Shown: piece by piece, positions 2 to 62,459 of the stretch
How positions within the stretch are numbered: the stretch's first letter is position 1
Layout of the letters: each line of letters begins with the position of its first letter
Assembly (NCBI GenBank): GCA_050872745.1
Contig: JBNMHL010000001.1
Coordinates: 36,842 to 100,841, forward strand
Reading direction: 5' to 3'
DNA from: Clostridiales bacterium
Lineage (GTDB): Bacteria; Bacillota; Clostridia; Christensenellales; UBA1242
Length of the DNA stretch: 64,000 nt
The notes under the pieces: generated by a model
What the model was told of the DNA's origin: nothing
Seen by the model: the letters and a program-made list of their open reading frames with translations, nothing else
The model's database searches: none
Program-made: the position numbers and the translations under genes

Positions 2-3000
2 CGAACAAAAGGATTGGATTCATTAAGCGGTTCTGAAATGTTGGGCTATTATGCTGGCCTATTTGGTTGCACTGATGGTGCAAAAATTAAAAACATCGTT
101 TTAGAAGAAAATTGCATTATAACAGGAACTCGTTATATTGGTGGATTGGTTGGCTACGCTAAAGACACATCTATAGAAAACATCATATCAAATGTGACTA
201 TAAACAACACGGATCTACTTCAAACTGAAAAAGAAGATGGTTGCACTGGTGGAGTAGTTGGGTTACTAGAATTTACGGATTATAAAGTTGATCTAAATCC
301 AACAGGATTAATCAAAGAATCGGAAACTCCGTTAACTCCAAATGCCTTTAATATTCCATTAAAAAATATTAACACAACAGCAAATGCGAAAGTGCAAGTT
401 GCACATTCAAGTGTTGTTGGTGGAATAATTGGCAAAATCTTAATCAATTCCGAAATAGAGAATTTGATTGTTTCATTTGGATCTGAAATCAAAAACAATG
501 CAAGCATTTATGCTCCTAATTCAAATAATGTTGCAGGTGTGATTGCAAAAGTTGAAGTAAATGAATGCATTATTGATAAAACGCAATTAGTTATTGAATT
601 CACTGATCTTAAAACTCAAATTATTGAAAATGGTGGCAAAGTTCAAGGGAAAAATTATGTTGGTGGTCTATTCAGTTCAATTTCAAACTTAAATGTTAAA
701 TCAACTGAAACAATTAACACGGCTGACATAAATCACAAACTAAACACAGGCTCAATTATGGGTGAAAATTATGTTGGTGGTTTTGCTGGTTACGCCACTC
801 ACACTAAAATTGAAGGCAGTGTTAAAGCGTATATTTCAGGAGAGAGTAAATACGCACTAAATTATGTTTGGTTTGAAAATGCTGGTTCAATTCAAGCAAG
901 TTCTTATGTTGGTGGATTATTTGGAGCAATAGGTGGTGATTATGATTCGATTGTTGATAAGCCTAACTATAGAGAACCAATTGAAGAATTTACTCAAGAG
1001 AAAGTAACAAGTCGATTGCATTTAGTTAAGAATAGCGGATCAATTTTAAGCAATAAAAACACCTCAGATAGTTACTTTGGTGGAATTGCAGGTTTTGCAA
1101 ATGTTTTAATTGAAGGTGCTATTAATAGCGGGGAAATTAATTGCATATTAAATGGTGCTGATTATAATGAACACAATACAAACTTAAAATATGTTGGTGG
1201 TATTGCTGGTTTTGAAACTGTTGGAATATTTGAAGCCCAAAACAAAGCTCCAGTATTTGGCTATGAAAGTGATGGTGAGAACTATGGTATTGCAGGTATT
1301 GTTGGAACATTCTTGATTAATGATAATATTGATGATGAATACAATAAAATTATTAACCTTGAAAATAGTGCAGAAATTGATAATGGAAATGGTTCAGCAA
1401 TCGTTGGAACAATTCTACATAATAAAAATCAGTTGGTTAACTATAAAGATTATTATGCAAAAACAGAATCAAAATTTAAGTATAGCAACATCGTTTCAGG
1501 TGGCACCTCTTCAAATATTTCAAACGATCTTCTAGCTTTAATTCAATCAAAAGTTTTAATGGGGTATGATAACAACAGTAACGCAATGCACTATTCAGAT
1601 AACACGATGATTCGCGTTGCAAACGAGAATAAAAATAATCAAGCATTCGTTGAGTCTTCTTCGTGGAAAACAAACGAAAATTCTAAGAAATTTGAGTTGG
1701 TTCAATTTGCTTTGCCAAAATTAGAAATTGAAGAAGTTGGTGAAAAATACGTTTATGCACTTTCTGATGCAAGTTCATATATCACCGCTCAAAAAACTCA
1801 TTCAAGAAGATATAAATTATCTCCATATCAATACGACATCAATCCAAATATTGATATAAAAGTAACGAGTCAAATAAACTTAAGCGGAATTAAGGATAGC
1901 ATTAAAGAAACAATTGATGTTTTGAATGAATCACATAATAGTATTAATCCTTTAGGTTCAAATGAATATATGTTCATAGGTGAATTTAATGGTGATAATA
2001 AAACAATAGCATATGATTCATTATATTCTCTAGATAATGAAAACTATGGTTTGTTTGGAGTTGTGAAAGAAACTGAAATATCAAATGTAACTATTAACTT
2101 TAAAGGAGAAAACTTTAATATTAATGGTAGTAAAAATGCAAGTTTTGCAATCGCCAAATTAATAGGTAAATCAAAAGTTGAAACTTTAAGTGTTAAGCAA
2201 ACTGAAAACAATATTAATATTCAAAACCAATCTACAAACTTTGGTTTTGCTATAGGTTCAATTGATGCAAACGGAACAAGTGAAGAAAACAAATCAGAAT
2301 TAAAAGATATTGTGGTGAATGGCGATATCATTTTAAATAGTGATATAACCAACTTAGGCGGATTGGTTGGAGAAATCACTGGCGAAGGATTTGTTGATAT
2401 TAGTCAAAGCGAAACCAATGAAAACAAATCAAAAATATTTATTAATGGAAATAACAAGGCAACTGCAATAGCAGGTGTTGTTGGATTAATAAATAAATCA
2501 GAAACAAAAGATTTAAATGTTTCAATTTCAGATCTTAAATTAGAAAAAGTTGAATTGAAAAATGCTAGTGATTTAGCTAGTGGTTCAACCATCGCAGGAA
2601 TAACAACTAAGCTTGAAACTGGCTCAAAAATAACTGGAATAGAAATTGGTGCAATCAACTTACAAAATGCAAATAATATTGCTGGTTTTGTTAATAATTT
2701 GAGTGGTGGTGAAATTAAATCAAATTCAATTAATTCAATAAACTTAGGTGCAGATCAAAATTTGAATTCATTAACAATAGGTGGTGCGGTTTCAACTTTA
2801 TCAAGTGGAAAATTGCAAATGAACTCTATTGCATTTGGAGCTTCTAACAAAATTGAAATCAATAATAACGCCACTATTAAAACTGCAAATATTGGTGGAT
2901 TAGTTGGTGTTGATAATAGTAGTGAAAACGAGGTTTATGCAATATTCAATACCAACACAAACGAGTGGGAAAACCAAAACACGATTAATAACCTAAAAAT

Positions 3001-6000
3001 CACAGCATATAAATCAACAATAAACAACTTAAATATGGGTGGTTTATCAGGTTTAGCTAACTTCTCTGATTCATTATTTGCAACAGCATTAAATGGAACA
3101 AATAGCGTGTCAATTGGTGGTGGCACTGAAGATAACAAAATCACTATTAAAGATTTATCGAACGTTGGTGCTTTATTTGGTAAACTTGAAGTTGCTAGTG
3201 AAAAAGAAATAGTGTTAGAAAATGAATTAGATAATATCAGCCTAGATACTACTATGAATCACATCTCTAAAACCTCAACAACTGATTACTTGAATATTGG
3301 TCAATTTGCAGGTTCAATCAGAGGTGGAGATAATAGCAAACTTAAATATGAATCAATTAATAGATCATTAATAATTGAAAATAGTTCAGGCAATATTTCA
3401 TTAGGTAAGTTTGCAGGAAACATAGAAAATATTAACTTAATTAAAACTGGATCAACTATTCCTACTATCCATTCAGTTGAAAACAACGATAAATCAGTTC
3501 TTGGTTTAATAGTTGGAAGAGCTAATAAAAGTAAAATTAGCGTTATGGCTTCTGAAGATGAATTGGTAAATTTAACTCTAGCAAATGATTTAAGCATCAA
3601 AGGTGGAAGTGTTGGTGTTATTGCTGGTTTAATTAAAGAATCAGAAATTAATTTGAAAGAACTTAGTTGTTCAAATTTAACAATCAATGGCGGAGTTTAC
3701 ACTGGTGCTGTTGTTGGAAAGAGCGAAAGTTCAAAAGTTAATTTATCAAAAATTTCAAATGCTAACTTATCTGGCACAAATGCTGGTGCGGTGGCAGGCG
3801 AATTTAAAAACTCAAATCTAAATTTAAAAGTAGAAGAAGTAGCTGGTGTTAAAAATTATTCAAACACAAAGCTTACTATAGATAATGTTTCAGTTCAAGC
3901 AAACGTGGCAGGTGCAGTGTTTGGAAAAATTAAAGTTGAGCTTTACACAAATATAGAAGAAACCTACATTTCAAATATCACAGTTTCAAATGTTTTCAAT
4001 ATCAAAGCAACTGATATTGGAACTAATAAAGGTAAGGCAGGTGGAATTGCGGGTGAAATTGATGGCACAAGCGTTGTTGCACGAATTGGTTCTCCAATCA
4101 GCCTTGGAATAACTGAAATTGATGGTTCAATTATTGGTGGAATAGCTGGTGAATTGAAAAATGGCTCTATCCAAAACCTAACCGAACATGATGACTTAGA
4201 TATTAAAGCTGAATCTAAACTAGTTAATGCTGAAATTGCTGGTGGAGTGGTAGGTTTAATTGGTGAGTCAGATAGTGAAAATGAAATTAAAATTGATGGT
4301 GTGATTAGCACATCAACTAGTATCACAGCAAGTTTAATTGCTGGTGGAATTATTGGCGAAATTAATAACGCTAAAGTTTCAATTGGAACTCAGAAACTTG
4401 TTCAAAATAAGGCAACCTTAGTTACTGCCGGAAGTGAAACAACGGAAGAAAACACATATGCTGGTGGAATCATTGGAAAAATTTTAAGTAATCTTGAAAC
4501 AAAGATTGAAAATGTTAATGGTTCAACTGGAATAAACGTAACCGCAATAGTTAAGTCTGATTTGGCAACATCGTATGCTGGCGGTGTGCTTGGTTATGGT
4601 GAAAATGTTGTGGGTGAATGGAATTTCATAGGTGTTGCAGAAGTAAAAAGTATTGAAGTCCAAAAATATGATGAAGATGGCAATCCGTTAAAGAACCCTG
4701 ATGATGGCACTAACATTAAAGAAAATAAAGATGTTGTGGTTTCATATAACCTAAACTTAGGAACAATAACTGCTAAAGTGGCTGGGGGAATTGCGGGTTA
4801 CCTAAAAGGAAAAAGCAATGCTGAAGCTGAAAGAGTTTCTATTAAAGGTAGCAGTGAAGAAAGGTCAAGTGACTTGTTGAATAATTTAACAATTGATAAT
4901 ATTTTCATGTCTTCAATTTATTATAGAACAACACTAACTGGAACAATCACAGGAACAAACGCTATAAGCTTAGGCTCAATTGTGGGTGAAGGTGAGAATA
5001 TTAACATTCAATATTTCCAAAACTCAGCAAAGATTGAAAAGGCAGAATCAGCAGGTGGTTTTGCTGGAATATTAACAAACGGAAAGATTGAAGAGTGCCA
5101 AAATGATTCAGATATATCTGCGAAAGAAAATGCGGGTGGATTTATCGGAAAGGCTCGCGAGAATATCACATTAATAAACACAACAAATAAAGCACCTGAA
5201 GAGGTTGATGATCCAGAAACAGGCGGAAAGAGAACTAAGTATGTTGATATAAAATCTGATAAATATGCAGGTGGAATAATCGGGGTTGGTGAAGAATTAA
5301 CTTTAGATAGTGAATTTGTTGGATTGAAAACTTCAACCCAATTTGCAGAAGCACTTAAGGGATGTGAAGATGATTTGGATACTGATCCAGATAATATAGG
5401 AACAATAATTGCAAAAGTCATATTATCTATTTGCTATCATTACGTTGCTCAATATAACAACACCATTATAATAGGAAATGTTCAAGGTGAAATTGCAGGT
5501 GGATTTGCCGGAAGCCTAAATGGAAACGAGTCGATTTGTTCAATTAAAGGTAAAGATATAAATATAAAACTAGTAGAAAGTATTGAGGGTAAGCTTGTTT
5601 ACACCGATACAATCATTCCAACAGTTAAACTTTCGGGAATAGTTAGAGCAAGCAAAACCGCGGGTGGTGTTATTGGTGAAGGTTCTAATATTTCAATTTC
5701 AAACATCAATTGTGCAGTTGGAATTTCAGGATTAACAGAAAGCACTCTTCTAGAAACTGCGGGTGGAATGGTAGGAAAAATCACGAACGGAGCAAACGTG
5801 ATTAAATCTGAAGAAGTTGATAGCGTTGATTTTGAAAAAATAACGGTTGGAAATGTTTCTGATATATCTGCAAGTGAAAATGCAGGAAATATAATTGGAT
5901 TGGTTGAAAGCGGTTCAGTTGATTTTGCGGGAAATATTCTTGGCGCTGGATTGGTAACTGCTGGAACAACAACCACAACATCAGACACATTTGCAGGTGG

Positions 6001-9000
6001 CTTAGTAGGTAAATCAAAAGGCTCAATTAGCCTATCAGATATCTCATCAATTAAATTAAATGGTTCAGTGCAAGCTTTGGGAACTTCAAACACATATGCT
6101 GGTGGTGTTTTAGGCTACTCTCAAGGTGCAACTGGCGAGTTTAAAATAAAAGGTGATTTTAATATAGGTAAAGTTGTTGGTAAAATTGCAGGTGGATTTG
6201 CTGGTCATTTGTCTGGAATGACTAATGAAAATAGAGTTTCGATTAAAGGCACTGAAAGTGTTGAAAGTCAAGTAAAAATTACGGGTTCTATCAAAGGTTC
6301 AGAAAACTCAACATTCAATAAAACTGCTGGTGGAATTATTGGTGAGGGAAGTTTTGTTAACATTGAAAACCTTAGCGTTGCAGTAAAAATAGATGGCACA
6401 AATAGATTATTTGCAGGTGGAATCGCAGGCTTTGTGTTTAACTGCAATATATCAAATTGCAAATCAAGTGCAGAAGATGATGAATCTGAAAAAACAATTT
6501 CAGCAAAAGCTGATATAACAGACCAAGCAATCAAAAACTTTAGTGGCGATTCTTTAACATTGGATTCATATACTAAAGATGAAAAAGTCTATTCAGGTTA
6601 TGCGGGTGGATTCGTTGGTTATGGAGTTGGTATTGAAATTTCATTACCATTGCAAGAAAAAACGAAAGTTAATGGAGTAATTGCAGGTGGAGTTGCAGGA
6701 TTCTTAAGTGGAAAAATCGCTAGAGAGAATAGAGAAAAATTATTTTTAGATGCTAATGGTGGAAGTATTAATGCAATAATCTCAGGCGGTGGAGCGGTTG
6801 GAATTAGTGCTGGTGTTAAAATAAATAATTTTGAGATTGAATTTAGCGAATTTAAGATAGTAAAAGAAATTGGGGCTTCAGTACCTGAAACTTATTTAGG
6901 TGGAGCTATCGGAAAATCGCAAGGTGGAAATGATAAAACTATTAATTGCACAACATCTTATAATGCAGGCAGTATTCAAAGAATAGAAGGTTCAAATTAT
7001 GCTGGTGGATTTGTAGGCTTCGCGAAAGCTGAAAGTTCGATTGAAATTTCTGGTTCAACTAATAACTTAGAAATTAAAGCGACTACTTGTGCTGGTGGTA
7101 TAATCGGAAAAGCAATTAGCGTTTCATTTACAAACACATCAAACGCTGGCAATGTTTCTGCTATCACAATCGTTGGTGGAATTGTTGGTGAAGCAGATAC
7201 TGCAATATTTAATAGTGGAATTAGTGTAACTCAGGGAACTTTCGAGGCTATCGACTATGCTGGAGCGGTTGCTGGAAAGGTAAATTATTCTGCAGAACTT
7301 ACTTCACCTCCTGAATTGGCAAATGCAATCCAAGTTTCTGCTTCAAACACTGAAGAAGATAAAGGTTACGCTGGTGGATATTTTGGTTATGTATCAGGTT
7401 TAACCGCAACGTTTGATATATCTGATTCAACTGAATTAAATATTGGAATGATTAAAGGAAATTACGCTGGTGGAATTGCTGGTTACGCTAGCGGAAAAGA
7501 AGATGACTTCTTAACGATTGTTGGTAACTTCACAACATATACTTCAATCAAAGGCACTATTTCATCATGCTCAGGCACTGCGAAATCGATCGGTGCTGTG
7601 GTTGGTGAAGGTGAATATCTAAACATTTCAAATATTCAAAACCAAATCACATTAAATAGTTCAGAAAAAGCGGGTGGTTTAGCTGGAAAATTAACCAACT
7701 CAAAAATCACACACTGCAGAGTTCTATATTCAGATATTACAGCAACTCATTATGCGGGTGGTTTAGTAGGTCAAGGTGAAAACCTTGAATTATCAGAAAT
7801 GTTTGAAATGAAAAACAATAGTGGAACAATTCAAACAACGGCAACTACCGAATCTTACGCTGGTGGATTATTTGGTTACTTAGAAGGTGTAATTGGAGAT
7901 AAGATTGATTGGTCGAGTTTCTACTATAGTGGAATCAATGTTGGAACAATTAAATCTAATTATTCTGCTGGTGGTTTCGCTGGTTTCTTGAGTGGAAGAG
8001 ATGCTGAAAATAAATATGTTTTAGGCGGGATAGATGGTAAGCCATTAAAAATGCAAGGCACGATCGCTAAGAATACCAAATCATATGCATATACATTAGG
8101 ATCAATAGTAGGAATTGGAAAGTGGTTGAAGTTAGAAAGCTGCGGAGAGTATGAAGTAATTAAAGAATCAGAAATTATTGGTGGAATCGCTGGAATACTC
8201 ACAGATTCAAATGTTTCTTATTGTGACTCTTCAAAAGACTTTTCAGTTGATTTCTCAAGTGGAGAATTAACAGATTCTAATAAAGGCATATGCGTTGGTG
8301 GAATAGTTGGATACGCAGACGGCGAAACGACAATTGAAAATTGTAGCTCATCAAGCAATATTTCTGCAAAGAAAACAACTGATTCTGATGGATACGCTAG
8401 TGTGGGTGGAATTGTTGGAAGAAGTGCAGGAAATATAACGATTAAAAACTGTGGTAGTCCCGCAAATATACGAACAATTACTGGAGAAAACATAGGAATA
8501 AATAGTAAATATGGTTATGCTGGTGGAGTGATTGGGCAGATACAAGGTGAAGGAACTATTACCGATTGTTATAATTACAGTAATGGGACCATTAAAGCAA
8601 CAAATTCAGCCGGAGGCATAGTAGGAGAAGCAGTTGAAATTATAATTAATACTGAAAATAAAGAATGCTCTAATGATGGTAATGTTGTAGCGAATAATGA
8701 CTACGGCTATGGTGCTGCTGGCGGAATTATTGGTAAAATATATGGCAGTGGAGCAATTATAGGAACTGAAACTTATAAAATTACAAATAATGGCAAAATA
8801 GGAAATGATTCAACATGGCAAGCAGGAGGAATAATTGGTAGGGCATCGGATAACGCTACTAATAGTGAAGAAATTGAGATTCAATATGTTGAAAACTATG
8901 GAACAATATTAGCAGAAGAAACTGCAGGTGGAATTATTGGAACTGGAGATGCATCTGAGATTAACATATCAAATGTAACAAATGAATTAATCGCGGTTAA

Positions 9001-11104
9001 CGAAAAAGATATAAGAGCTAAGTGTGTTGGAGGAATTATTGGGCATGTGAAGAGTGTAACATTTGGTGAGAATATCAAGTGCTTAGATGGAAATTTTGTG
9101 GGAGTTACATATGCTGGGGGAATAGCTGGCAAAATATCAACTTCTGCTAAAATAAACAACACTCCAACTATATCAAGCGAAATTAGAGTTTTAACTTCGG
9201 GAACAGGAGAAGACATTGGTTACACTGGTGGATATTTTGGCTATGTTGAGAAAGCAGAAGGAACTTTAGATTTCAGTTCATCACCTGAAATAAGTATCGG
9301 TGAAGTTTGCGGAAAATGTGCTGGTGGAATTGCCGGTTACATATCTGGAACTGCAGGAAATAACTTAAAGATTCAAGGACACTTAAGTAAAACAAGGTTA
9401 GTTAACTCTGCTGTTTCAGCTTTTCAAGGTTCACCAACGCCAGCCACGCAGTATATAGGCGGGCTTATAGGTAAAGGTGGATATTTGGTAATTTCAAATT
9501 TCATCATAATTAACTCAGTTGAGATAAATAGCAACAAACAATATAATGAAGCTATGGGTGGATTTATTGGTGTTGTTAGTGCTGAAACAACAATTTCTAA
9601 TTGCACAAATAATGCCGGTATGTTAATTATAGGAAACGATGTTGATGCAGGAGGTTTTGTTGGCCATTCTGGAGCTAAATTAACAATTTCTAATTCGATA
9701 AATAATGGCGAAATCGAAGCAAAAAGAGATACAACTGTTGGAGGACCAGCTAATCAATTTGTTAACGCAGGAGGTTTTGTTGGTGATTCTAAATCAGATC
9801 TTGAAATTACAGGCTCAATAAATAATGGTACGATAAAGTCAGATGATACTTTTGGAACTGCTGGAGGATTCGTTGCACTTTCATTTGGAATGATAACACT
9901 AACAAATTGCCATAATGGTTCAAGTGGCTCACAAGCTACAATTCAAGGAGAACATGCAGGAGGTTTAGTTGGTCATAATGATGAAAAATCAATACTAATA
10001 AGTGGTTGTGTAAATTATTTAAATATCACAGGCTTATATTGTGGAGGCTTTGTTGCTTACACTAAAGGTGAACTAAACGTTGAGAATAGTGAAAATAATG
10101 GTTCTGTTGATGCCACATGTGATGCTGGTGGAATAGTTGCGCATGCCATTGGAACAAAATTAAATCTTACAAACACTCATAATAAAAAAGGTATAAAATC
10201 TGGCTCACAAACATATACAGAGGGTACTACTACAACTACTACACTGGGATACAGTATTGGCGGGTTGGCTGGTTATGTTACGGGTGTATGTGATATTCAA
10301 AATTGTTCTAATTCGGGCTATATACATGGAGCGGTTCAGGCTGGCGGATTGGTTGGTCACGCTCGAAATGATATCACAATAACGGGCTCTAGGAATACTG
10401 GGGATGTTCGAGGAACAGCCACATTTACTAATTGTGGAAAAGGCGGATTGGGCGATTCAGCTGTTGGTGGCTTTATTGGTTATGTTGTTAATTCAAATGT
10501 AACAATTAATGGTACTGATGAACAAGAAAATAAATCTTTTATTTCTCACGGATTATATATGGGTGGTTTTGTAGGCTATATTAAAAATCAAAATGAAGGT
10601 GGGAATAATAAACAAGTAGAAATTCAAAATTGTATATCTACCTCGAACGGCATCGAAAATAGGTCAGATATTGGATGTTCTCAAGGCTTTGGACATCCTG
10701 GAGGGTTTATTGGAAGAACAGATATTGTAACATACATAGATAATTGCACAAATAGTGCGAAAATAGAGTCGTGTAATGTTAATAATAAAGCAACAGATGC
10801 TGGTATTGTATCAATAGCGAATGAAATTTATATAGGTACTAAAAAAAATACTGGAGCTGTAATAAATAATGGCTATGTTGGTTATGTTAAGGGCGCCACA
10901 ACAAGTGCACCTAAGAATGTGGCTGGATTAGTTGGTTTTATAAATAGTTACGGAAAATTTGATAATTATCAATCAAATGGTGGCTTAACTTGCAATAGTG
11001 GGGGACATACAGCTTTAGTCTGCTTCTACAAAACTGGTGCCACGATAGAAGGAGTTTCTGGGGATGCCAATATAAAGGAGTGGACTTGGAACTATCCAAT
11101 TTAA
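2..11104 (+). CDS. Giant repeat protein (>3,696 aa, 5' end outside window); GLUG-motif, probably beta-helical surface adhesin-like protein
   Basis: One frame is open from the first bases of the window to TAA at 11102-11104. It carries well over 100 degenerate units centred on G-G-[ILF]-[AVI]-G (YVGGLVG, AGGIAG, AGGFVG). The C-terminal ~900 aa (nt ~8300-11100) show the classical GLUG pattern I-x-N-C-x-N-x-G-x-[IV]...A-G-G-[IFL]-V-G. No start codon can be assigned inside the window. Confidence 0.85.
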   Translation, partial: RTKGLDSLSGSEMLGYYAGLFGCTDGAKIKNIVLEENCIITGTRYIGGLVGYAKDTSIENIISNVTINNTDLLQTEKEDGCTGGVVGLLEFTDYKVDLNPTGLIKESETPLTPNAFNIPLKNINTTANAKVQVAHSSVVGGIIGKILINSEIENLIVSFGSEIKNNASIYAPNSNNVAGVIAKVEVNECIIDKTQLVIEFTDLKTQIIENGGKVQGKNYVGGLFSSISNLNVKSTETINTADINHKLNTGSIMGENYVGGFAGYATHTKIEGSVKAYISGESKYALNYVWFENAGSIQASSYVGGLFGAIGGDYDSIVDKPNYREPIEEFTQEKVTSRLHLVKNSGSILSNKNTSDSYFGGIAGFANVLIEGAINSGEINCILNGADYNEHNTNLKYVGGIAGFETVGIFEAQNKAPVFGYESDGENYGIAGIVGTFLINDNIDDEYNKIINLENSAEIDNGNGSAIVGTILHNKNQLVNYKDYYAKTESKFKYSNIVSGGTSSNISNDLLALIQSKVLMGYDNNSNAMHYSDNTMIRVANENKNNQAFVESSSWKTNENSKKFELVQFALPKLEIEEVGEKYVYALSDASSYITAQKTHSRRYKLSPYQYDINPNIDIKVTSQINLSGIKDSIKETIDVLNESHNSINPLGSNEYMFIGEFNGDNKTIAYDSLYSLDNENYGLFGVVKETEISNVTINFKGENFNINGSKNASFAIAKLIGKSKVETLSVKQTENNINIQNQSTNFGFAIGSIDANGTSEENKSELKDIVVNGDIILNSDITNLGGLVGEITGEGFVDISQSETNENKSKIFINGNNKATAIAGVVGLINKSETKDLNVSISDLKLEKVELKNASDLASGSTIAGITTKLETGSKITGIEIGAINLQNANNIAGFVNNLSGGEIKSNSINSINLGADQNLNSLTIGGAVSTLSSGKLQMNSIAFGASNKIEINNNATIKTANIGGLVGVDNSSENEVYAIFNTNTNEWENQNTINNLKITAYKSTINNLNMGGLSGLANFSDSLFATALNGTNSVSIGGGTEDNKITIKDLSNVGALFGKLEVASEKEIVLENELDNISLDTTMNHISKTSTTDYLNIGQFAGSIRGGDNSKLKYESINRSLIIENSSGNISLGKFAGNIENINLIKTGSTIPTIHSVENNDKSVLGLIVGRANKSKISVMASEDELVNLTLANDLSIKGGSVGVIAGLIKESEINLKELSCSNLTINGGVYTGAVVGKSESSKVNLSKISNANLSGTNAGAVAGEFKNSNLNLKVEEVAGVKNYSNTKLTIDNVSVQANVAGAVFGKIKVELYTNIEETYISNITVSNVFNIKATDIGTNKGKAGGIAGEIDGTSVVARIGSPISLGITEIDGSIIGGIAGELKNGSIQNLTEHDDLDIKAESKLVNAEIAGGVVGLIGESDSENEIKIDGVISTSTSITASLIAGGIIGEINNAKVSIGTQKLVQNKATLVTAGSETTEENTYAGGIIGKILSNLETKIENVNGSTGINVTAIVKSDLATSYAGGVLGYGENVVGEWNFIGVAEVKSIEVQKYDEDGNPLKNPDDGTNIKENKDVVVSYNLNLGTITAKVAGGIAGYLKGKSNAEAERVSIKGSSEERSSDLLNNLTIDNIFMSSIYYRTTLTGTITGTNAISLGSIVGEGENINIQYFQNSAKIEKAESAGGFAGILTNGKIEECQNDSDISAKENAGGFIGKARENITLINTTNKAPEEVDDPETGGKRTKYVDIKSDKYAGGIIGVGEELTLDSEFVGLKTSTQFAEALKGCEDDLDTDPDNIGTIIAKVILSICYHYVAQYNNTIIIGNVQGEIAGGFAGSLNGNESICSIKGKDINIKLVESIEGKLVYTDTIIPTVKLSGIVRASKTAGGVIGEGSNISISNINCAVGISGLTESTLLETAGGMVGKITNGANVIKSEEVDSVDFEKITVGNVSDISASENAGNIIGLVESGSVDFAGNILGAGLVTAGTTTTTSDTFAGGLVGKSKGSISLSDISSIKLNGSVQALGTSNTYAGGVLGYSQGATGEFKIKGDFNIGKVVGKIAGGFAGHLSGMTNENRVSIKGTESVESQVKITGSIKGSENSTFNKTAGGIIGEGSFVNIENLSVAVKIDGTNRLFAGGIAGFVFNCNISNCKSSAEDDESEKTISAKADITDQAIKNFSGDSLTLDSYTKDEKVYSGYAGGFVGYGVGIEISLPLQEKTKVNGVIAGGVAGFLSGKIARENREKLFLDANGGSINAIISGGGAVGISAGVKINNFEIEFSEFKIVKEIGASVPETYLGGAIGKSQGGNDKTINCTTSYNAGSIQRIEGSNYAGGFVGFAKAESSIEISGSTNNLEIKATTCAGGIIGKAISVSFTNTSNAGNVSAITIVGGIVGEADTAIFNSGISVTQGTFEAIDYAGAVAGKVNYSAELTSPPELANAIQVSASNTEEDKGYAGGYFGYVSGLTATFDISDSTELNIGMIKGNYAGGIAGYASGKEDDFLTIVGNFTTYTSIKGTISSCSGTAKSIGAVVGEGEYLNISNIQNQITLNSSEKAGGLAGKLTNSKITHCRVLYSDITATHYAGGLVGQGENLELSEMFEMKNNSGTIQTTATTESYAGGLFGYLEGVIGDKIDWSSFYYSGINVGTIKSNYSAGGFAGFLSGRDAENKYVLGGIDGKPLKMQGTIAKNTKSYAYTLGSIVGIGKWLKLESCGEYEVIKESEIIGGIAGILTDSNVSYCDSSKDFSVDFSSGELTDSNKGICVGGIVGYADGETTIENCSSSSNISAKKTTDSDGYASVGGIVGRSAGNITIKNCGSPANIRTITGENIGINSKYGYAGGVIGQIQGEGTITDCYNYSNGTIKATNSAGGIVGEAVEIIINTENKECSNDGNVVANNDYGYGAAGGIIGKIYGSGAIIGTETYKITNNGKIGNDSTWQAGGIIGRASDNATNSEEIEIQYVENYGTILAEETAGGIIGTGDASEINISNVTNELIAVNEKDIRAKCVGGIIGHVKSVTFGENIKCLDGNFVGVTYAGGIAGKISTSAKINNTPTISSEIRVLTSGTGEDIGYTGGYFGYVEKAEGTLDFSSSPEISIGEVCGKCAGGIAGYISGTAGNNLKIQGHLSKTRLVNSAVSAFQGSPTPATQYIGGLIGKGGYLVISNFIIINSVEINSNKQYNEAMGGFIGVVSAETTISNCTNNAGMLIIGNDVDAGGFVGHSGAKLTISNSINNGEIEAKRDTTVGGPANQFVNAGGFVGDSKSDLEITGSINNGTIKSDDTFGTAGGFVALSFGMITLTNCHNGSSGSQATIQGEHAGGLVGHNDEKSILISGCVNYLNITGLYCGGFVAYTKGELNVENSENNGSVDATCDAGGIVAHAIGTKLNLTNTHNKKGIKSGSQTYTEGTTTTTTLGYSIGGLAGYVTGVCDIQNCSNSGYIHGAVQAGGLVGHARNDITITGSRNTGDVRGTATFTNCGKGGLGDSAVGGFIGYVVNSNVTINGTDEQENKSFISHGLYMGGFVGYIKNQNEGGNNKQVEIQNCISTSNGIENRSDIGCSQGFGHPGGFIGRTDIVTYIDNCTNSAKIESCNVNNKATDAGIVSIANEIYIGTKKNTGAVINNGYVGYVKGATTSAPKNVAGLVGFINSYGKFDNYQSNGGLTCNSGGHTALVCFYKTGATIEGVSGDANIKEWTWNYPI

Positions 11105-18300: not shown

Positions 18301-18914
18301 TTAAAAATGGAGATATGGTTGAAGCCGGAACAGTTCTAACTGAAGGTTCAATCTATCCTAATGATTTATTGCGTACTCGCGGTGTTAAAGAAGTTGAAAA
18401 TTACCTTCTTCGTGAAGTTTTGGCAACTTACTCATCTCAAGGTGTTGAATTAAATACAAAGCACGTTGAAATAATCATTAAGCAAATGTTAAGAAATGTT
18501 AGAATCGAAGATTCGGGTTCAACAAATCTTCTTGCTGGAGATATCGTTGATTACTACACATACGAAGATGAAAACGAAAGAGTACTTCAAGAAGGTGGAA
18601 TTCCAGCAACTGCAAAACGTTTGGTTCAAGGAATCACAAAAGCTTCCTTATCTAACCCAAGTTTCTTAGCGGCTGCATCATTCCAAGAAACCTCAAGAGT
18701 TTTAACTGATGCTTCTATCAAGGGTAAGGTTGACCACTTAGTATCATTAAAAGAAAACTTAATGATAGGTAAACAAATCCCAGCCGGAACAGGTTATAGC
18801 TTCATTAAGAAGGTTAAACCAGTTAGCGTTGATGATCAAATTGATGCTTATGGTGATCTTGATGAAAACACAGCTAAGTTATTTGAAGAAGAACAAGAAA
18901 ATTCAGAATTTTAG
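15303..18914 (+). CDS. rpoC: DNA-directed RNA polymerase subunit beta'
   Basis: 1,203-aa ORF with the zinc motif CHCGKYK...CDKCGVEV and the catalytic [19 protein letters not shown] is present, and the start is 11 nt after the rpoB stop. Confidence 0.98.
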
Positions 18915-24970: not shown

Positions 24971-26380
24971 ATGGAAAATAGATTTATTAGAAATATTTCT
25001 CAAGATGCTCTAGTTTCTGAGAAAACCGATATTGTATTTAATTCGTTGTTAGGGGTTTACGATAATAATGGCAACTATTTTATTGCGCCAGAAATAGTTA
25101 ATGAATTAATAGGTTTTGAAAAAGCAAAAAAATATGCTTTTCAAGATTCAGTTTTTTGTGAAAGCAATATCCCCGGATTTGGTGAAATTATGTTTGAAAT
25201 AACATTTCATAAAAATCCTGAAAAAAATGAGTTTAGTGCAAAATTGTTTTTACTTGAAAATGTGTATAAAATTAATGGATATTTGCAAAATACAATTAAA
25301 ACTTTAATTTCAGAATTTAAATCTGATATGAAAGATTTTGTTGAAAAAGTATATAAAAACTATAATGTTGTTGTTGACTATGATGAAAACGGCAGAAAGA
25401 AAAAGGTGAGTGCTGAACACTTCTTAAAAACATTTTTAATGGCAAAAAAACAGTACTGTAATGCCCTTAAGAACGCAATTCAAACTGAATCTGAAAAACT
25501 ATACGGCGATTATTATAAAGCCAAAATAAAGGTTTTAAATAGGTCAAAAAACGCCTTTACCACAGATGTTTTAAGGCAATATGATAATGAATCTAAAAAG
25601 ATTGAAGGTGTTTTCTTAAAAGAAACGAAGAACAAAGATTTAAATGAATTGCTGGATAAATCAATTGAAGATATCACTCAAACAAAAGAACAAAATAAAG
25701 AGTTTGAAGAAAAATTTTTCAAAGAAATTTTGCCTGCGTTAAAAACTTTTTACTCATCAATGACTGAAACTATTGAAACTGCATCTAAAAAAGTTATGGA
25801 AAGTTTAGATAAATCTGATAGATTGAATATGAATGTTATTAAAGAAAAAGAAGATAACTTTGTTAGAACATCAAATAACGATTCAAGCCTTAGTGAATTA
25901 ATAGACTTGTTGAATCTTGAGCAACCAATATTAGATGAAAATGAGCTTGAAATGTATGAGGAAAGTCTAAAAGATTTAAGCATTGAAAACTCAGTTAATT
26001 TAGATAATGAAACCAACCAAACTACTATGCAAGATTTTGAAAATTCTGAATTGAAGCCAATCGATGCTGATTTATTAAATGAAGTTAATAAAAAACAAAA
26101 AGAGGGAAAACTAAAATTTGATAAAGTCATAAGTGGGAAAATCAAAAAATCTATATTAAATAATTCCAACTTTAAAACAATAGATAATACTATGCAAAAT
26201 CAAGAATCTGCAACTCAGGTTGATGTTCATAATGTTGTTGCAAAAGAAAAAGTTGAAGAAAAAATGCAAGAGGCGCAAGCACTTGATGGTAACACAGTTG
26301 CATCGAGCATAATCGAGAATTTAAAGGGTAAAAATAGTAATAATTCAACTCAAGATTTTGAAATTGATCGCAATATTTAA
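24971..26380 (+). CDS. Hypothetical protein (469 aa), K/E/N-rich, no recognisable domain
   Basis: Long ORF in the co-directional gene run. There is no obvious SD and no family I recognise. Confidence 0.7.
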   Translation: MENRFIRNISQDALVSEKTDIVFNSLLGVYDNNGNYFIAPEIVNELIGFEKAKKYAFQDSVFCESNIPGFGEIMFEITFHKNPEKNEFSAKLFLLENVYKINGYLQNTIKTLISEFKSDMKDFVEKVYKNYNVVVDYDENGRKKKVSAEHFLKTFLMAKKQYCNALKNAIQTESEKLYGDYYKAKIKVLNRSKNAFTTDVLRQYDNESKKIEGVFLKETKNKDLNELLDKSIEDITQTKEQNKEFEEKFFKEILPALKTFYSSMTETIETASKKVMESLDKSDRLNMNVIKEKEDNFVRTSNNDSSLSELIDLLNLEQPILDENELEMYEESLKDLSIENSVNLDNETNQTTMQDFENSELKPIDADLLNEVNKKQKEGKLKFDKVISGKIKKSILNNSNFKTIDNTMQNQESATQVDVHNVVAKEKVEEKMQEAQALDGNTVASSIIENLKGKNSNNSTQDFEIDRNI

Positions 26381-26403
26381 ACTGTGAAAATATAAGGAAA
26401 AGA

Positions 26404-26670
26404 ATGAATATGCAAAAGAAAACAAGGAATATTTTAATAGCATCAATAGTCTCAGCAATAATTGTTGTGGTGGCTTTGGTGTGTGTATTAATTTTTGCTA
26501 CTAAGCCAAAATCATTTAATTGCACAATAAATTACGCATATGGCTTAGTTCAAGAATCAACATTAAATCTTAAAAAGGGAACAAGCATTTCAGAAATAAT
26601 TCCAATAGAAATTGAAGGTTACACCTTTGATGGATATTATTTTGATCAAGAATTTAACGAAAAAGTTTAA
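26404..26670 (+). CDS. N-terminal fragment (signal-anchor plus first part of an InlB B-repeat / Flg_new domain) of an interrupted surface protein
   Basis: The TM segment is ILIASIVSAIIVVVALVCVLIFA. The fragment ends ...IEGYTFDGYYFDQEFNEKV-TAA. The next ORF is in the same frame and continues the same repeat unit. Confidence 0.8.
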   Translation: MNMQKKTRNILIASIVSAIIVVVALVCVLIFATKPKSFNCTINYAYGLVQESTLNLKKGTSISEIIPIEIEGYTFDGYYFDQEFNEKV

Positions 26671-26679
26671 GATAATTAT

Positions 26680-29550
26680 GTGATCAAAAGAAAGTTAAAT
26701 TTGTATGCAAAATACAATATTAATTATTACGCAATCACAATATCATCAAACAACACACAATATGGTTCTGTGAGTGAATCTAGCTTCGAAGCAGAATATA
26801 ATTCAATGATTACTATTGAAGGAAATAAAATTACAATTGGAAATAAGGAAATAATTGCAACACCAACGCCTAACACAATTCAAAATTCTTATGCTTTTGT
26901 TAATTGGTCAATTTCTCCAGTGTGCGAAAATGTTAAAGGAGATATAAGCATTGTGGCAAATTTTAAAGAGACCACAAACGCGTACGAGATCAAATTTTTA
27001 AACTATGATGGAACAGAACTTCAAAAGTCTAACCTAAGCTTTGGAGAAATGCCAACGTACGATGGTGCAACTCCAACAAAACCAGCAACAGCTGAATTTA
27101 CTTACACATTCTCAGGTTGGGATAAGGAAATTAGCAACGTTACAGGTGATACAACTTACACGGCTATCTTCACAAAAATTAAAAATAAGTATTTAATCAC
27201 ATTTAAAAATGAAGATGGAAGCATCATTGAAGCAAAAGAATTTGAGTATGGTACAATTCCAAATTGCTCTCAAACTCCAACAAAACCAGCAACAGCTGAA
27301 TTTACATACACATTCTCAGGATGGGATAAGGAAATTAGCAACGTTACAGGTGATGAAACTTACATAGCTATCTTTACAAAAATTAAAAATAAGTATTTAA
27401 TCACGTTTAAAAATGAAGATGGAAGTATTATTGAGACAAAAGAATTTGAGTATGGTACAATTCCAAGTTGTTCTCAAATTCCAACGAAAGAACCCACTAT
27501 TGAGTTAGCTTACACATTTAATGGTTGGTTACCGAAGGTGGTTAGCGTGACTGGTGAAGCAACATATAAAGCAACATTCAGAGAAGGAGCAAGGCAATAC
27601 ACCTACACATTCTATAACGAAGATGGTTCAAGTGTTGTTTCAACTGGTGCAGTTGATTATAATTCAATAATCCCTTTGCCACAAGATCCAATAAAAAAAG
27701 GCCATGAATTTGTTGGTTGGAGCTTAAATCCTGATGGAGAAGTTGCAGATTTGAGTAATTTTAGAGTTGTTGAAAATGTTGATATTTACGCACTTTTTAG
27801 TGTTTTAAAATATACAATAACATGTTTAAATTCTGAAAATGGAGTGCTATCATCAGAGAAATCAAAATGTGATTATGGAGATATTTCTAAATTAACTTTC
27901 ACACCAAACGAAGGCTTTATTCTTTCAGCATATTTTGTTAATGGTGAAAGAATGGAATTGCAGGCTGATGAGTTAGTTTTGGGAGTAAAAAATATATCTT
28001 TCATAATGCCGGATTCTAATGTTGAATTAACCCCAGAATTTTCAATTGCTATAAAAACAAAAGATGGTGAAACTATTAATTGGGCATACACAACAGAGAC
28101 TGAAAATGGTGAAGAATTTACATATATCAATCAAATCCCAAAGTGTGATGGGGTTAATTTTGAGATTGATATCCCGGCATTCCTTATAGATACCGATAAC
28201 GAAAACAAAGTTGTTGCAATAAATGGAGTTAGAGGTTTTAGATCTGGCCCAATTGCAAATGTGAAGGATTATAAAACAGTCAATCTTCCAACACAACCAA
28301 GTTTTAGCAGAATAGGGAAATATGCATTTAATTATTGTACTAAATTATTTAACATTAATATAACAAGCAATATATCATTTATTGGAGATGGAGCTTTTAA
28401 TAATATTGCAAAAACTGATTTTTATATTCCAAGTAGTGTTCAAGAAATAGGAGAAAATGTTTTTGGTCGAAATTCAATAACAAGTTTAATTATTTCTCCC
28501 GAAAACGATACATTCACGGATGGCGGAGTTAATGCCATAATTAATAAAAAAACAAAAACATTAGAATATGCAACAACATTAACAACATCAATTCCAGATT
28601 CTGTTTTAGTTATTGGTTCTGGGGCTTTTTCTAATTATTGTTTTTCAGGTGCTTTTGTTATTCCAAATTCAATTGTTGAAATAAAAGAATCAGCCTTCAG
28701 GTCTAGCAATTTTGAGTCAATAGTTATTCCCAGCAGTGTGGAAATTATAGGGAAAGAAGCATTTTTAATTTGCAGTAAGTTAAGTTCCATTATATTGAAT
28801 TGCAGAATAACTGAGTTAAGTTCAAGCATGTTTCGTGGGTGTGACTTACTTGAAGAAATAACCTTGCCTAGTTCTATAATCTCAGTTGGTGAAGCAGATC
28901 CTTTTGAAAGGTGTCCAAATTTAAAAAATATTAAAATTGATGGGGAAAATTCACTTTTGTCATTTGATAATAATTTATTAATTATTAATGATGGTGTTAG
29001 AAAAAAAATTATTCATCATATTACAAATTCAGAAGAAAACATTGCGATTGCTAACGATATAACTGAAATATGCGATGGAGCTTATTCATATGATGATACG
29101 ATAACAAGTGTTAATTTCCCAGGTAATGTGAAAATAGCTTCTAAAAGTGTTTTTTATCGTTGTAGCAATTTGACTTACTTAACTTTAAATGAAGGAATTG
29201 AAATAATTAAAGTGTTAGCGTTTGGTAGTAATAAAATTGAAAAACTAATAATTCCAAATTCTGTTTCCATCATTGAGGCTAGCACATTCTACACATATAG
29301 TTCATCTCTCACTACTATTATTATTGGAACGCCTGAAGGCTCAAACCTTAAGAAAATAGGAAAAACTGCTTTTGGTATGAAATCTCATACTTTTGATCTA
29401 ATAATTTACGCAAATATCCCGCCAGTATTCGATGAACCAGATTCATACATTGGAGGATTTTCTTCAATAAAGGTTCCTAGTGGCAGTGTTCAAAGTTATA
29501 AAGAAGCAGAAGGTTGGAGTAAATATGCCGATGTTATTACTGCGATTTAA
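26680..29550 (+). CDS. Main part of the interrupted surface protein: InlB-B/Flg_new-type repeats followed by BspA-type leucine-rich repeats
   Basis: The frame is open from 26671, directly after the TAA. It begins (DNY)VIKRKLNLYAKY, the canonical end of a Flg_new unit. The C-terminal half carries IP-x-SV-x-I-G-x-x-AF-x-x-C-x-x-L repeats (BspA/LRR_5 style). This part has no signal peptide of its own. Confidence 0.8.
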   Translation: MIKRKLNLYAKYNINYYAITISSNNTQYGSVSESSFEAEYNSMITIEGNKITIGNKEIIATPTPNTIQNSYAFVNWSISPVCENVKGDISIVANFKETTNAYEIKFLNYDGTELQKSNLSFGEMPTYDGATPTKPATAEFTYTFSGWDKEISNVTGDTTYTAIFTKIKNKYLITFKNEDGSIIEAKEFEYGTIPNCSQTPTKPATAEFTYTFSGWDKEISNVTGDETYIAIFTKIKNKYLITFKNEDGSIIETKEFEYGTIPSCSQIPTKEPTIELAYTFNGWLPKVVSVTGEATYKATFREGARQYTYTFYNEDGSSVVSTGAVDYNSIIPLPQDPIKKGHEFVGWSLNPDGEVADLSNFRVVENVDIYALFSVLKYTITCLNSENGVLSSEKSKCDYGDISKLTFTPNEGFILSAYFVNGERMELQADELVLGVKNISFIMPDSNVELTPEFSIAIKTKDGETINWAYTTETENGEEFTYINQIPKCDGVNFEIDIPAFLIDTDNENKVVAINGVRGFRSGPIANVKDYKTVNLPTQPSFSRIGKYAFNYCTKLFNINITSNISFIGDGAFNNIAKTDFYIPSSVQEIGENVFGRNSITSLIISPENDTFTDGGVNAIINKKTKTLEYATTLTTSIPDSVLVIGSGAFSNYCFSGAFVIPNSIVEIKESAFRSSNFESIVIPSSVEIIGKEAFLICSKLSSIILNCRITELSSSMFRGCDLLEEITLPSSIISVGEADPFERCPNLKNIKIDGENSLLSFDNNLLIINDGVRKKIIHHITNSEENIAIANDITEICDGAYSYDDTITSVNFPGNVKIASKSVFYRCSNLTYLTLNEGIEIIKVLAFGSNKIEKLIIPNSVSIIEASTFYTYSSSLTTIIIGTPEGSNLKKIGKTAFGMKSHTFDLIIYANIPPVFDEPDSYIGGFSSIKVPSGSVQSYKEAEGWSKYADVITAI
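26977..27600 (+). repeat. Intragenic tandem repeat, ~204-nt (68-aa) unit, about 3 copies
   Basis: CTCCAACAAAACCAGCAACAGCTGAATTTAC... at 27071 recurs at 27275. The protein units NKYLITFKNEDGSIIE[AT]KEFEYGTIP and TPTKPATAEFTYTFSGWDKEISNVTGD are near-identical. Confidence 0.85.
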
Positions 29551-29612
29551 TGAATTTATTTAAATCATAACTTAAAAAAACAAATAAAGTTGCAATAAAT
29601 AACATTTTATAC

Positions 29613-56553: not shown

Positions 56554-56952
56554 ATGATAGTAACAGATCCAATCGCAGATATGCTAACAAGAATGAGAAA
56601 TGGCTTGAGTGCTAAACATAAAAGTGTTTCCGTTCCAGTTTCAAAAACAAAATTAGCAATTGCAAAACTATTACTTGATGAATGTTTCATCGCTTCATAT
56701 AATGTTGATGGTGAAGGCACAAAAGCAAATATAAATATAGAATTCAAATTCGGTCCTAATGGCGAAAAAGTTATAAATGGATTAAAGAGAATTTCTAAAC
56801 CAGGTTTAAGAATTTATGCTAGTGCAGAAGACCTTCCAAAAGTTATTAATGGTTTAGGTATTGCAATTGTTTCAACAAATAAAGGATTAATGACAGACAG
56901 ACAAGCACGCCAAGAAAATGTTGGTGGTGAAGTTTTGGCTTTCGTTTGGTAG
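56554..56952 (+). CDS. rpsH: 30S ribosomal protein uS8
   Basis: MIVTDPIADMLTRMRNG. AAGGAG lies upstream of ATG 56554. Confidence 0.97.
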   Translation: MIVTDPIADMLTRMRNGLSAKHKSVSVPVSKTKLAIAKLLLDECFIASYNVDGEGTKANINIEFKFGPNGEKVINGLKRISKPGLRIYASAEDLPKVINGLGIAIVSTNKGLMTDRQARQENVGGEVLAFVW

Positions 56953-58477: not shown

Positions 58478-58939
58478 ATGGCAGAAACTAAGAAAACAAC
58501 AACAAAATCAACTACTGCTACAAAATCTACTTCAGCTAAATCAACAGCAGTAAAAAAAGAAACAGCTACTAAAACTCCAGCAAAAACAGTAGCTAAATCA
58601 ACATCTGCAAAAAAGGATACAGCAACAAAAACAACAGCATCAAAAACTGTAGCTAAAACACCAGCAAAGAAAGCTACAACAAAATCTGCTGAAGTTAAAG
58701 TTGAACCAAAAAAAGCAGAAGTTAAAGTTGAAAAAACATCAAAACCTGCTAAGAAAGGTAAAATGATTAGAGTAACTTTAATTAGAAGTTACATTGGTTA
58801 CAATAAAGACCAAGCAAGAACTGTTAAAGCTCTTGGTTTAAATAAAATAAATTCATCAAACGAACTAGTTGATAACGCTTGCATTAGAGGTATGATCTTC
58901 AAAGTTAAACATTTAGTTCGTGTTGAAGAAATGAACTAG
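58478..58939 (+). CDS. rpmD: 50S ribosomal protein uL30 with a ~95-aa Lys/Ala/Thr-rich N-terminal extension
   Basis: The C-terminal 58 aa, [56 protein letters not shown], form a complete L30 core. The upstream 95 codons are in frame and start at ATG 58478 behind AGGAGG. Confidence 0.9.
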
Positions 58940-60751: not shown

Positions 60752-60784
60752 GGAAATATTAAAATAAAAACAAAGGAATGAAAA

Positions 60785-61426
60785 ATGATGAAATTATCAA
60801 TGTTAGGCGCTCCAGGTTGTGGTAAAGGTACTCAAGCAAAAAAACTAAGTGCTTATTATAATATTCCACACATTTCAACTGGTGACATTTTTAGAAAAGC
60901 AATAAAAGAACAAACTGAATTAGGAAAACTTGCTGAAAAGTATATGAGCAAATTAGTTCCTGATGAAATTACTATAGGCTTAGTAAAAGAAAGAGTTAAA
61001 GAGGCTGATTGTGCAAATGGATTTATTTTAGATGGATTTCCAAGAACAGTCGCTCAAGCTGAAGCTTTCCTAAAAGATAATTCTTTCGATAGAATCCTAT
61101 ATTTCAATATAGATGAACAAACAGTTATTAAAAGAATTCTTGCAAGAAGAACTTGTGCTAATTGCGGTGAAATTTATATTGATGATGGAAATCTTGGTAA
61201 AACTTGTACAAAGTGTGGTGGCGACTTGATTGTACGTGCTGAAGATAGTAAAATTGAAGAAAGAATTAACACTTATAATAAAGAAACATTCCCATTGGTT
61301 AATTATTTTAAAGAAAAAGGTTTGATTTTTGAAATCAACACTAATGATGTTAAGAGTACTGAAGCTAGTGCTCAAATCGAAGAAATTTTCAATATAATAA
61401 CTAAAGAATTGGACGCAAATAAATAA
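60785..61426 (+). CDS. adk: Adenylate kinase (Cys4 zinc lid)
   Basis: LGAPGCGKGTQAKKL, and the lid CANCGEIY...CTKCGGDL. The start is ATG 60785 or 60788. Confidence 0.97.
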   Translation: MMKLSMLGAPGCGKGTQAKKLSAYYNIPHISTGDIFRKAIKEQTELGKLAEKYMSKLVPDEITIGLVKERVKEADCANGFILDGFPRTVAQAEAFLKDNSFDRILYFNIDEQTVIKRILARRTCANCGEIYIDDGNLGKTCTKCGGDLIVRAEDSKIEERINTYNKETFPLVNYFKEKGLIFEINTNDVKSTEASAQIEEIFNIITKELDANK

Positions 61427-62171
61427 TGATAAAATTAAAAAGTGAAAAAGATTTAGTTGATATGCGTGTTGCTTGTAAAATCACTGGTGACACACTTAAA
61501 TATATAGAAACTAAAATAAGACCAGGTATTTCAACAAAGGAATTAGATACTCTCGCATATGAGTTTATCAAAAGTAAAGGTGCAAAACCATCATTTAAAA
61601 ATTATGCTGGCTTTCCTGGTTCGCTTTGCACTTCAATTAATGATGTTATAGTTCACGGCATCCCTAGTGAATCTGTAATTTTAAAAGAAGGGGATATAAT
61701 TAGCATTGATGTTGGAGCTAAATACAATGGATTCCACGGAGATGCTGCAAGAACATTTCCAGTTGGAAAATAGATGCCAAAACAGCAAAACTAATCAAAG
61801 TAACTGAAAAAAGTTTTTTTGAAGGTATTAAAGACTTAAAGGCAGGAGCTTTTGTTGGAGATATCTCACATAGAATTCAAACCTATGTTGAAAAAAATGG
61901 TTTCTCAATTGTTAGAGAATTAGTGGGGCATGGTGTTGGCAGAGATCTTCATGAAGATCCTATGGTTCCTAACTATGGAAGAGCTGGAAGCGGTGCAAAA
62001 CTTAATGCGGGTGCAACAATCGCCATTGAACCTATGGTAAATATGGGCGAAAGAAACGTTGTTTTTAAAAGCGATGGTTGGACTTGTGCAACAAGAGATG
62101 GGCTTCCTGCAGCTCATTATGAAAATACTATTTTAATAACTGAAAATGGTGTAGAAATTTTAACTTTATAA
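61426..62171 (+). pseudogene. map: Methionine aminopeptidase type I, interrupted by a -1 frameshift at an A4 run (61767-61770)
   Basis: The 0 frame reads ...GDAARTFPVGK then TAG (61771-61773). The -1 frame continues, from Ile codon ATA at 61770 after the Lys, as IDAKTAKLIKVTEKSFFEGIK...VGHGVGRDLHEDP...AAHYENTILIT. The two parts together give a complete ~248-aa MetAP. Confidence 0.9.
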
Positions 62172-62180
62172 AGGGTATTT

Positions 62181-62459
62181 ATGCAAACAAAATTTGATGT
62201 CGGAAGTGTTGTTAAATCAACATATGGTCATGATAAAGGTGAGCTATTTGTGGTTTTGAGTGTTAACGAAAGCAATGTGTTTATTGTTAATGGGAAATCA
62301 CGTAAGATAGAAAAGCCTAAAAAGAAAAATTTAAAGCATATTTATCTTTTACTAAAAAACACCGATCTAAAAGAGTTAATCGTAAATAATAAAGCAACAG
62401 ATGCACATATCATTAAACTCTTAAAAGAGTATAAAAACAAAGAACTAGGAGGCAATTAG
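62181..62459 (+). CDS. KOW-domain small RNA-binding protein (YbzG-like) between map and infA
   Basis: VGSVVKSTYGHDKGELFVVLSV is KOW-like. The map-infA position is conserved, as in Bacillus. Confidence 0.6.
   Translation: MQTKFDVGSVVKSTYGHDKGELFVVLSVNESNVFIVNGKSRKIEKPKKKNLKHIYLLLKNTDLKELIVNNKATDAHIIKLLKEYKNKELGGN

Follow-up and report, generated by a model that had tools for sequence, protein, structure and literature searches.

Type I methionine aminopeptidases (TIGR00500/PF00557), with solved structures from T. maritima (1o0x) and E. coli (1mat/2mat), contain a dinuclear metal site that in the E. coli enzyme comprises D97, D108, H171, E204 and E235, together with the catalytic histidine H79. 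Methionine aminopeptidase (MetAP) is essential in those bacteria that possess one copy, and in many Firmicutes, the encoding gene follows adk in the spc operon. Reading of one bacterial gene in two frames is known from -1 sites such as those of dnaX (A-AAA-AAG), IS elements (A-AAA-AAG or A6G types) and B. subtilis cdd, with dnaX-type shifts being stimulated by a Shine-Dalgarno (SD) sequence located 10-14 nt upstream. Slippage by RNA polymerase needs an A/T run of about 8-9 bases or more. At the same time, homopolymer-length errors leading to frameshift 'pseudogenes' are a familiar feature of draft and metagenome-assembled genomes, with short A4/A5 runs only rarely being miscalled by short-read platforms. 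Here, a MetAP gene (map) interrupted by a one-base frame change is compared with each of these systems.

The window, namely, the whole stretch of 64,000 nucleotides analysed, includes part of the spc/alpha ribosomal operon, where map is found in the order rplO-secY-adk-map-infA-rpmJ-rpsM-rpsK, with the features of the map locus all lying on the plus strand. The first base of the map start codon, ATG at 61426, is at the same time the last base of the adk stop codon, TAA (TAATG), such that the adk ORF (60785-61426; PF00406 ADK in relatives) and the first map ORF (61426-61773) overlap by one base. This first ORF encodes an N-terminal fragment of 115 residues in the 0 frame that ends as ...DAARTFPVGK (in full, ...HGDAARTFPVGK) before a premature TAG at 61771-61773, directly preceded by a run of four A residues (A4) at 61767-61770. 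Continuing from position 61770, the -1 frame encodes a C-terminal part of 133 residues (61770-62171) reading IDAKTAKLIKVTEKSFFEGI...ENGVEILTL or, written out further, IDAKTAKLIKVTEKSFFEGIKDLKAG...ITENGVEILTL, with the stop codon at 62169-62171. Stop codons close the -1 frame just upstream of the junction, and the first ATG, GTG or TTG in this frame is the GTG at 61923, from which gene calling had predicted a C-terminal fragment of 82 residues (P0124). Between map and infA lies a gene encoding 92 residues (62181-62459), present in all relatives and without a Pfam match. The description of the 0 frame, the TAG, the A4 run, the -1 continuation and GTG 61923 offered by an earlier, sequence-only reading was accurate upon re-reading, while the location of map in the spc/alpha operon and its TAATG coupling to adk, also put forward at that time, agree with the ORF coordinates.

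In the same ribosomal region, the gene at the L30 position (58478-58939) encodes 153 residues, a length maintained in all conspecific loci. The L30 domain occupies only residues 97-147 of this protein, preceded by a Lys/Ala-rich N-terminal extension of about 95 residues that gives a weak, below-threshold match to a histone H1-like (HC2) profile.

The two pieces of map respectively cover positions 3-100 and 105-208 of the Pfam Peptidase_M24 profile. When joined by repair of the frame, the resulting protein of 248 residues scores 322.4 bits against NCBIfam TIGR00500 (type I methionyl aminopeptidase; cut-off, 171.35) and 169.7 bits against PF00557 (cut-off, 23). Over residues 1-247, the joined protein is collinear with 1o0x, the MetAP of T. 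maritima (E 1e-74), and the alignment runs ungapped through the junction. The N-terminal half contributes the catalytic histidine H77, as well as D95 and D106, whereas H169, E202 and E233 are found in the C-terminal half; all six residues appear in conserved motifs aligned with 1o0x and 4fo7. Because the ligands are divided between the fragments, neither piece alone can form the metal site. The earlier proposal that the -1 frame is the continuation of a type I MetAP with its metal ligands is thus borne out by the profiles and by the 1o0x alignment. Judging from these alignments, the split map is a single gene interrupted by a frame change of one base, with chance resemblance being excluded. 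In score class, collinearity and ligand set, the repaired protein is the same as described type I MetAPs, and the gene follows adk, as in many Firmicutes. What sets it apart is the lack of a single A, which interrupts the frame in no record but this one; the 248-residue protein is otherwise unremarkable. It is, accordingly, a standard type I MetAP encoded at the usual operon position and no new kind of feature.

In a genome scan with peptides of the map protein, a conspecific locus (L001; CAKVOF01, a metagenome-assembled genome from the Hadza gut) matched the entire 248-residue sequence in a single frame, at 99% identity. Here, the DNA reads CCAGTTGGAAAAATAGATGC, as compared to CCAGTTGGAAAATAGATGC in the window, which is one A short of a run of five (A5). 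Another 11 loci, originating from different samples and present in ENA and Logan assemblies, were collected by way of contigs encoding either the exact SecY of the window or P0001. All 12 conspecific loci covering this position, which represent 11 distinct contigs and are 98.7-99.96% identical to the window, read GGAAAAATAGATGC, i.e., A5, where the window reads GGAAAATAGATGC. In each of these loci, map is a single uninterrupted frame, called as a gene of 248 residues, in contrast to the window, where the frame is closed by the TAG at 61771. A5 is found even in the nearest strain, L088, for which 7,639 compared bases include two substitutions relative to the window, and likewise in the strains represented by L091 (99.9%) and L085 (99.8%). 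Sequences from runs SRR30769980, SRR30769984 and SRR30769985 are 99.9-99.97% identical, and both of those runs with contigs extending to this position show A5. Five more distant orthologues (L002-L006; 77-83% amino acid identity) are likewise in frame, reading GGA-AAA-ATT, GGA-AAG-ATT or GGG-AAG-ATT, with L002 and L006 carrying AAG rather than AAA at the site. Such codon variation indicates that the A run is conserved to no greater extent than is needed to encode Gly-Lys-Ile. The question raised earlier of whether relatives have A4 plus TAG in common is thereby answered in the negative. Among the best 120 database homologues of the map protein, nearly all are single proteins of 247-249 residues. 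A fixed-flank scan of the metagenome_contigs collection, from which the species is absent, matched neither the A4 nor the A5 allele.

The distribution of the broken form was next considered at the protein level. In a collection of 15 billion proteins, the 90%-identity cluster containing the map protein has 15 members, 13 of which are distinct variants of 248 residues encoded on about 29 contigs. The other two, of 115 (P0130) and 82 (P0124) residues, come from one and the same NCBI contig. As they are exactly the fragments encoded by the window, this contig is evidently the window's own. An exact look-up of both fragments in the gene-position index had given no match before the cluster listing returned them. 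By contrast, P0122, a full-length member present on three contigs, including that from which L085 was taken, is identical at every residue to the translation of the window upon repair of the run to A5, indicating that map shows no decay beyond the single missing base. The additional lesions or relaxed constraint expected of a decaying pseudogene were not seen, with both halves translating exactly to P0122.

A census of indels comparing the window with 24 conspecific loci, covering about 46-46.7 kb of the window, likewise singled out this position. Only the indel in map fell within conserved coding sequence, and only there did all covering loci (12/12) disagree with the window; the remaining indels are located in A/T runs between genes, most of them being common to several loci. 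One of the latter, a one-base A6/A5 polymorphism at 60765 in the secY-adk spacer, presents the window state also in L085, L087, L088 and L091 and so is a real population variant, unlike the private indel in map. Among the records compared, the loss of one A in map is private to this record.

Larger differences between strains were also noted. Between a gene encoding 469 residues and rpmG, the window contains an insertion of about 3.3 kb (26190-29570) that varies between strains and encodes an 88-residue ORF and a 956-residue surface protein with BspA-type leucine-rich repeats and Listeria-Bacteroides repeats; the insertion is missing in L093 and L094, while L095 retains a partial, indel-ridden remnant. 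At the end of rpoC (18903-18914), the window is three codons longer than L093 and L094, with a Ser codon at 18904 where these relatives have a stop codon. Upstream of rpoB, an uninterrupted ORF of 3,696 residues (14-11104), has one GLUG motif as its sole Pfam match; its product is probably a surface or adhesin-like protein of very large size.

Differences between the window and its relatives are about 4:1 synonymous to nonsynonymous (93:20, 365:96, and others), reflecting strong purifying selection on the region. Relative to L085, every coding difference is synonymous save one, at codon 44 of the gene encoding ribosomal protein S8 (rpsH, 56554-56952). There, at position 56683, the window has TGT (Cys), as opposed to GGT (Gly) in 12 of 12 distinct relative contigs, the 99.96% identical strain among them. 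Gly44 lies within an EGFI motif common to the three solved bacterial S8 structures (PDB) in the alignments shown. A further private change affects a Band_7_1-like gene (48087-48971), where an in-frame TGA at 48480-48482 divides the gene into ORFs at 48027-48482 and 48507-48971. In the eight conspecific contigs compared, the codon is AGA (Arg) and the gene encodes one protein of 294 residues (8/8). L103 is one of these relatives, despite having the local haplotype of the window; L104 and L105 also have AGA, these being further stretches of the contigs counted as L096 and L097. The L4 look-up returned no nearest-strain contigs over this TGA, such that its private nature is judged against relatives at 97.6-98.8% identity. 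It was the failure of an exact look-up with the Band_7 C-terminal ORF that had led to the TGA; similar look-ups with the window's rplA and rpoB also gave no match, with start-codon choice or strain-specific residues being the likely cause. Against a background of mostly synonymous differences, the three damaging changes private to the window, in map, S8 and the Band_7-like gene, resemble unselected consensus noise.

Could the two frames of map be joined during translation? The candidate -1 slip site is CCAGTTGGAAAATAGATGCC, read in the 0 frame as GGA-AAA-TAG and, in -1 terms, as G-GAA-AAT-AG. It was previously suggested that map needs a -1 frameshift and, as the third of three options, that the shift is programmed. 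According to such a scenario, the tRNA-Lys in the P site would slip back from one AAA triplet to another while the A site holds TAG, in an evolved, stop-stimulated event yielding full-length MetAP. Re-pairing of this kind is chemically possible, as was claimed earlier, and this point is agreed upon, although as an incidental property of the sequence rather than an evolved signal. Decoding is, moreover, known to slow when a stop codon occupies the A site, and the second half of map lacks a canonical start before GTG 61923. Like the sites in dnaX, IS elements and cdd, the map site offers a Lys AAA codon able to re-pair one base back. Unlike those sites, it presents no tandem heptamer, no stimulatory SD sequence or hairpin and no conservation among orthologues, nor is a useful shorter product apparent. 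Specifically, no X-XXY-YYZ slippery heptamer is found at the site, where re-pairing is possible for the P-site AAA only, the A site holding a stop codon. No internal SD sequence is found 10-14 nt upstream, the nearest SD-like GGAG being about 27-30 nt upstream. The predicted folding of the 90 nt downstream (-16.5 kcal/mol; z -1.31) is not significant, with 19 of 200 shuffled sequences folding as well. Neither a two-frame layout nor a shift site appears in any of the 12 conspecific loci or in L002-L006, all of which are in frame and in which even the A run is not always kept, and nearly all of the best 120 homologues are, as noted above, undivided. Finally, a literature search on recoding or programmed frameshifting in methionine aminopeptidase returned unrelated co-mentions only. 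With A4 plus TAG not found in relatives and no stimulatory element detected, the earlier suggestion did not hold up, and an evolved frameshift at this position is considered to be extremely improbable.

Other routes to a functional product were addressed and rejected. Transcriptional slippage would call for a run much longer than A4. Readthrough of the TAG or an alternative genetic code is countered by the 0 frame meeting TAA six codons past the TAG and by the long ORFs of the window being intact under table 11. Were the C-terminal half to be translated separately, the first canonical start, GTG 61923, would omit residues 116-166, with the ligands still being split between the two halves.

This leaves the origin of the missing base to be considered. 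Circumstantial evidence suggests that the split in map is probably a consensus or assembly error, with the organism itself being unaffected. The loss of one A from A5 in one deposited record would have turned GGA-AAA-ATA-GAT into GGA-AAA-TAG, creating an in-frame TAG from bases that in relatives belong to the codons ATA-GAT, and would have moved the second half of map to the -1 frame. Were this the case, the cell would make a normal enzyme of 248 residues, identical to P0122, by normal translation and with no recoding. An under-call of A5 as A4 had been the first choice among the three options raised in the sequence-only reading, and this choice is upheld by the A5 run and intact 248-residue gene of all 12 conspecific loci, in contrast to the option of a programmed shift. 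That reading had taken A5 in the sequencing reads as the sign of a simple error; A5 in 12 of 12 relatives comes very close to this. An error is also favoured because a gene of essential type is concerned, situated within a ribosomal protein operon. Comparable breaks, moreover, occur in this type of data, since other metagenome assemblies of the same species contain broken essential genes, with rpsC being split into calls of 34 and 94 residues in L099 (6385-7071) and with a spurious 44-residue call and an altered rplE start following a breakpoint near rplX in L084 (276-948). The map break shares with known homopolymer-length errors a single-base change in an A run, seen in one assembly and in an otherwise perfectly conserved essential gene; it differs from typical examples in the shortness of the run (A5 to A4) and in being the only coding indel of the window, such that any error would be an isolated one. 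As a single-base frameshift in a draft or metagenome-assembled record, the break belongs to a familiar class.

Some of the evidence points in the other direction, namely, to a real and very recent deletion that would have rendered this copy of map a new pseudogene, a genuine inactivation having been the second of the three options raised earlier. With 579 A/T runs of at least five bases, an 11-kb ORF that is intact and no further frameshift in coding sequence, the window does not resemble an assembly in which homopolymer errors are frequent. Synonymous (63075) and intergenic (63787) changes private to the window mark it as a genuine strain of its own, in which a deletion could have newly arisen, A5 runs are natural hotspots of replication slippage, and a second private inactivating change is at hand in the TGA of the Band_7-like gene. 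At the same time, no other assembly carries the deletion (12/12 A5), and only a lesion of extremely recent origin would be compatible with both halves still matching intact P0122 in amino acid sequence. The gene is, furthermore, part of the spc operon, with its start coupled to adk, in a region under strong selection, and no second M24 gene is found within the 64-kb window. Survival of a strain with a real deletion could possibly be explained by a second MetAP encoded elsewhere, by the population having been sampled while the deleterious variant was frequent or by trace -1 slippage on A-AAA. On balance, a real deletion is seen as unlikely. That A4 is real in a strain with no second MetAP, kept alive by spontaneous, unselected -1 slippage at the TAG making a little full-length enzyme, is held to be very unlikely.

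If the A4 run were nonetheless true, the strain would represent a modestly interesting natural experiment on the tolerance of MetAP loss, still with no evidence of an evolved frameshift signal. The significance of the map case is mainly one of quality control, in that a frameshifted essential gene in a ribosomal operon mimics recoding, while comparison with conspecific assemblies shows a loss of one base in one record. As such, the record is best read, and ideally annotated, as containing an intact map gene encoding 248 residues, unless its reads say otherwise.
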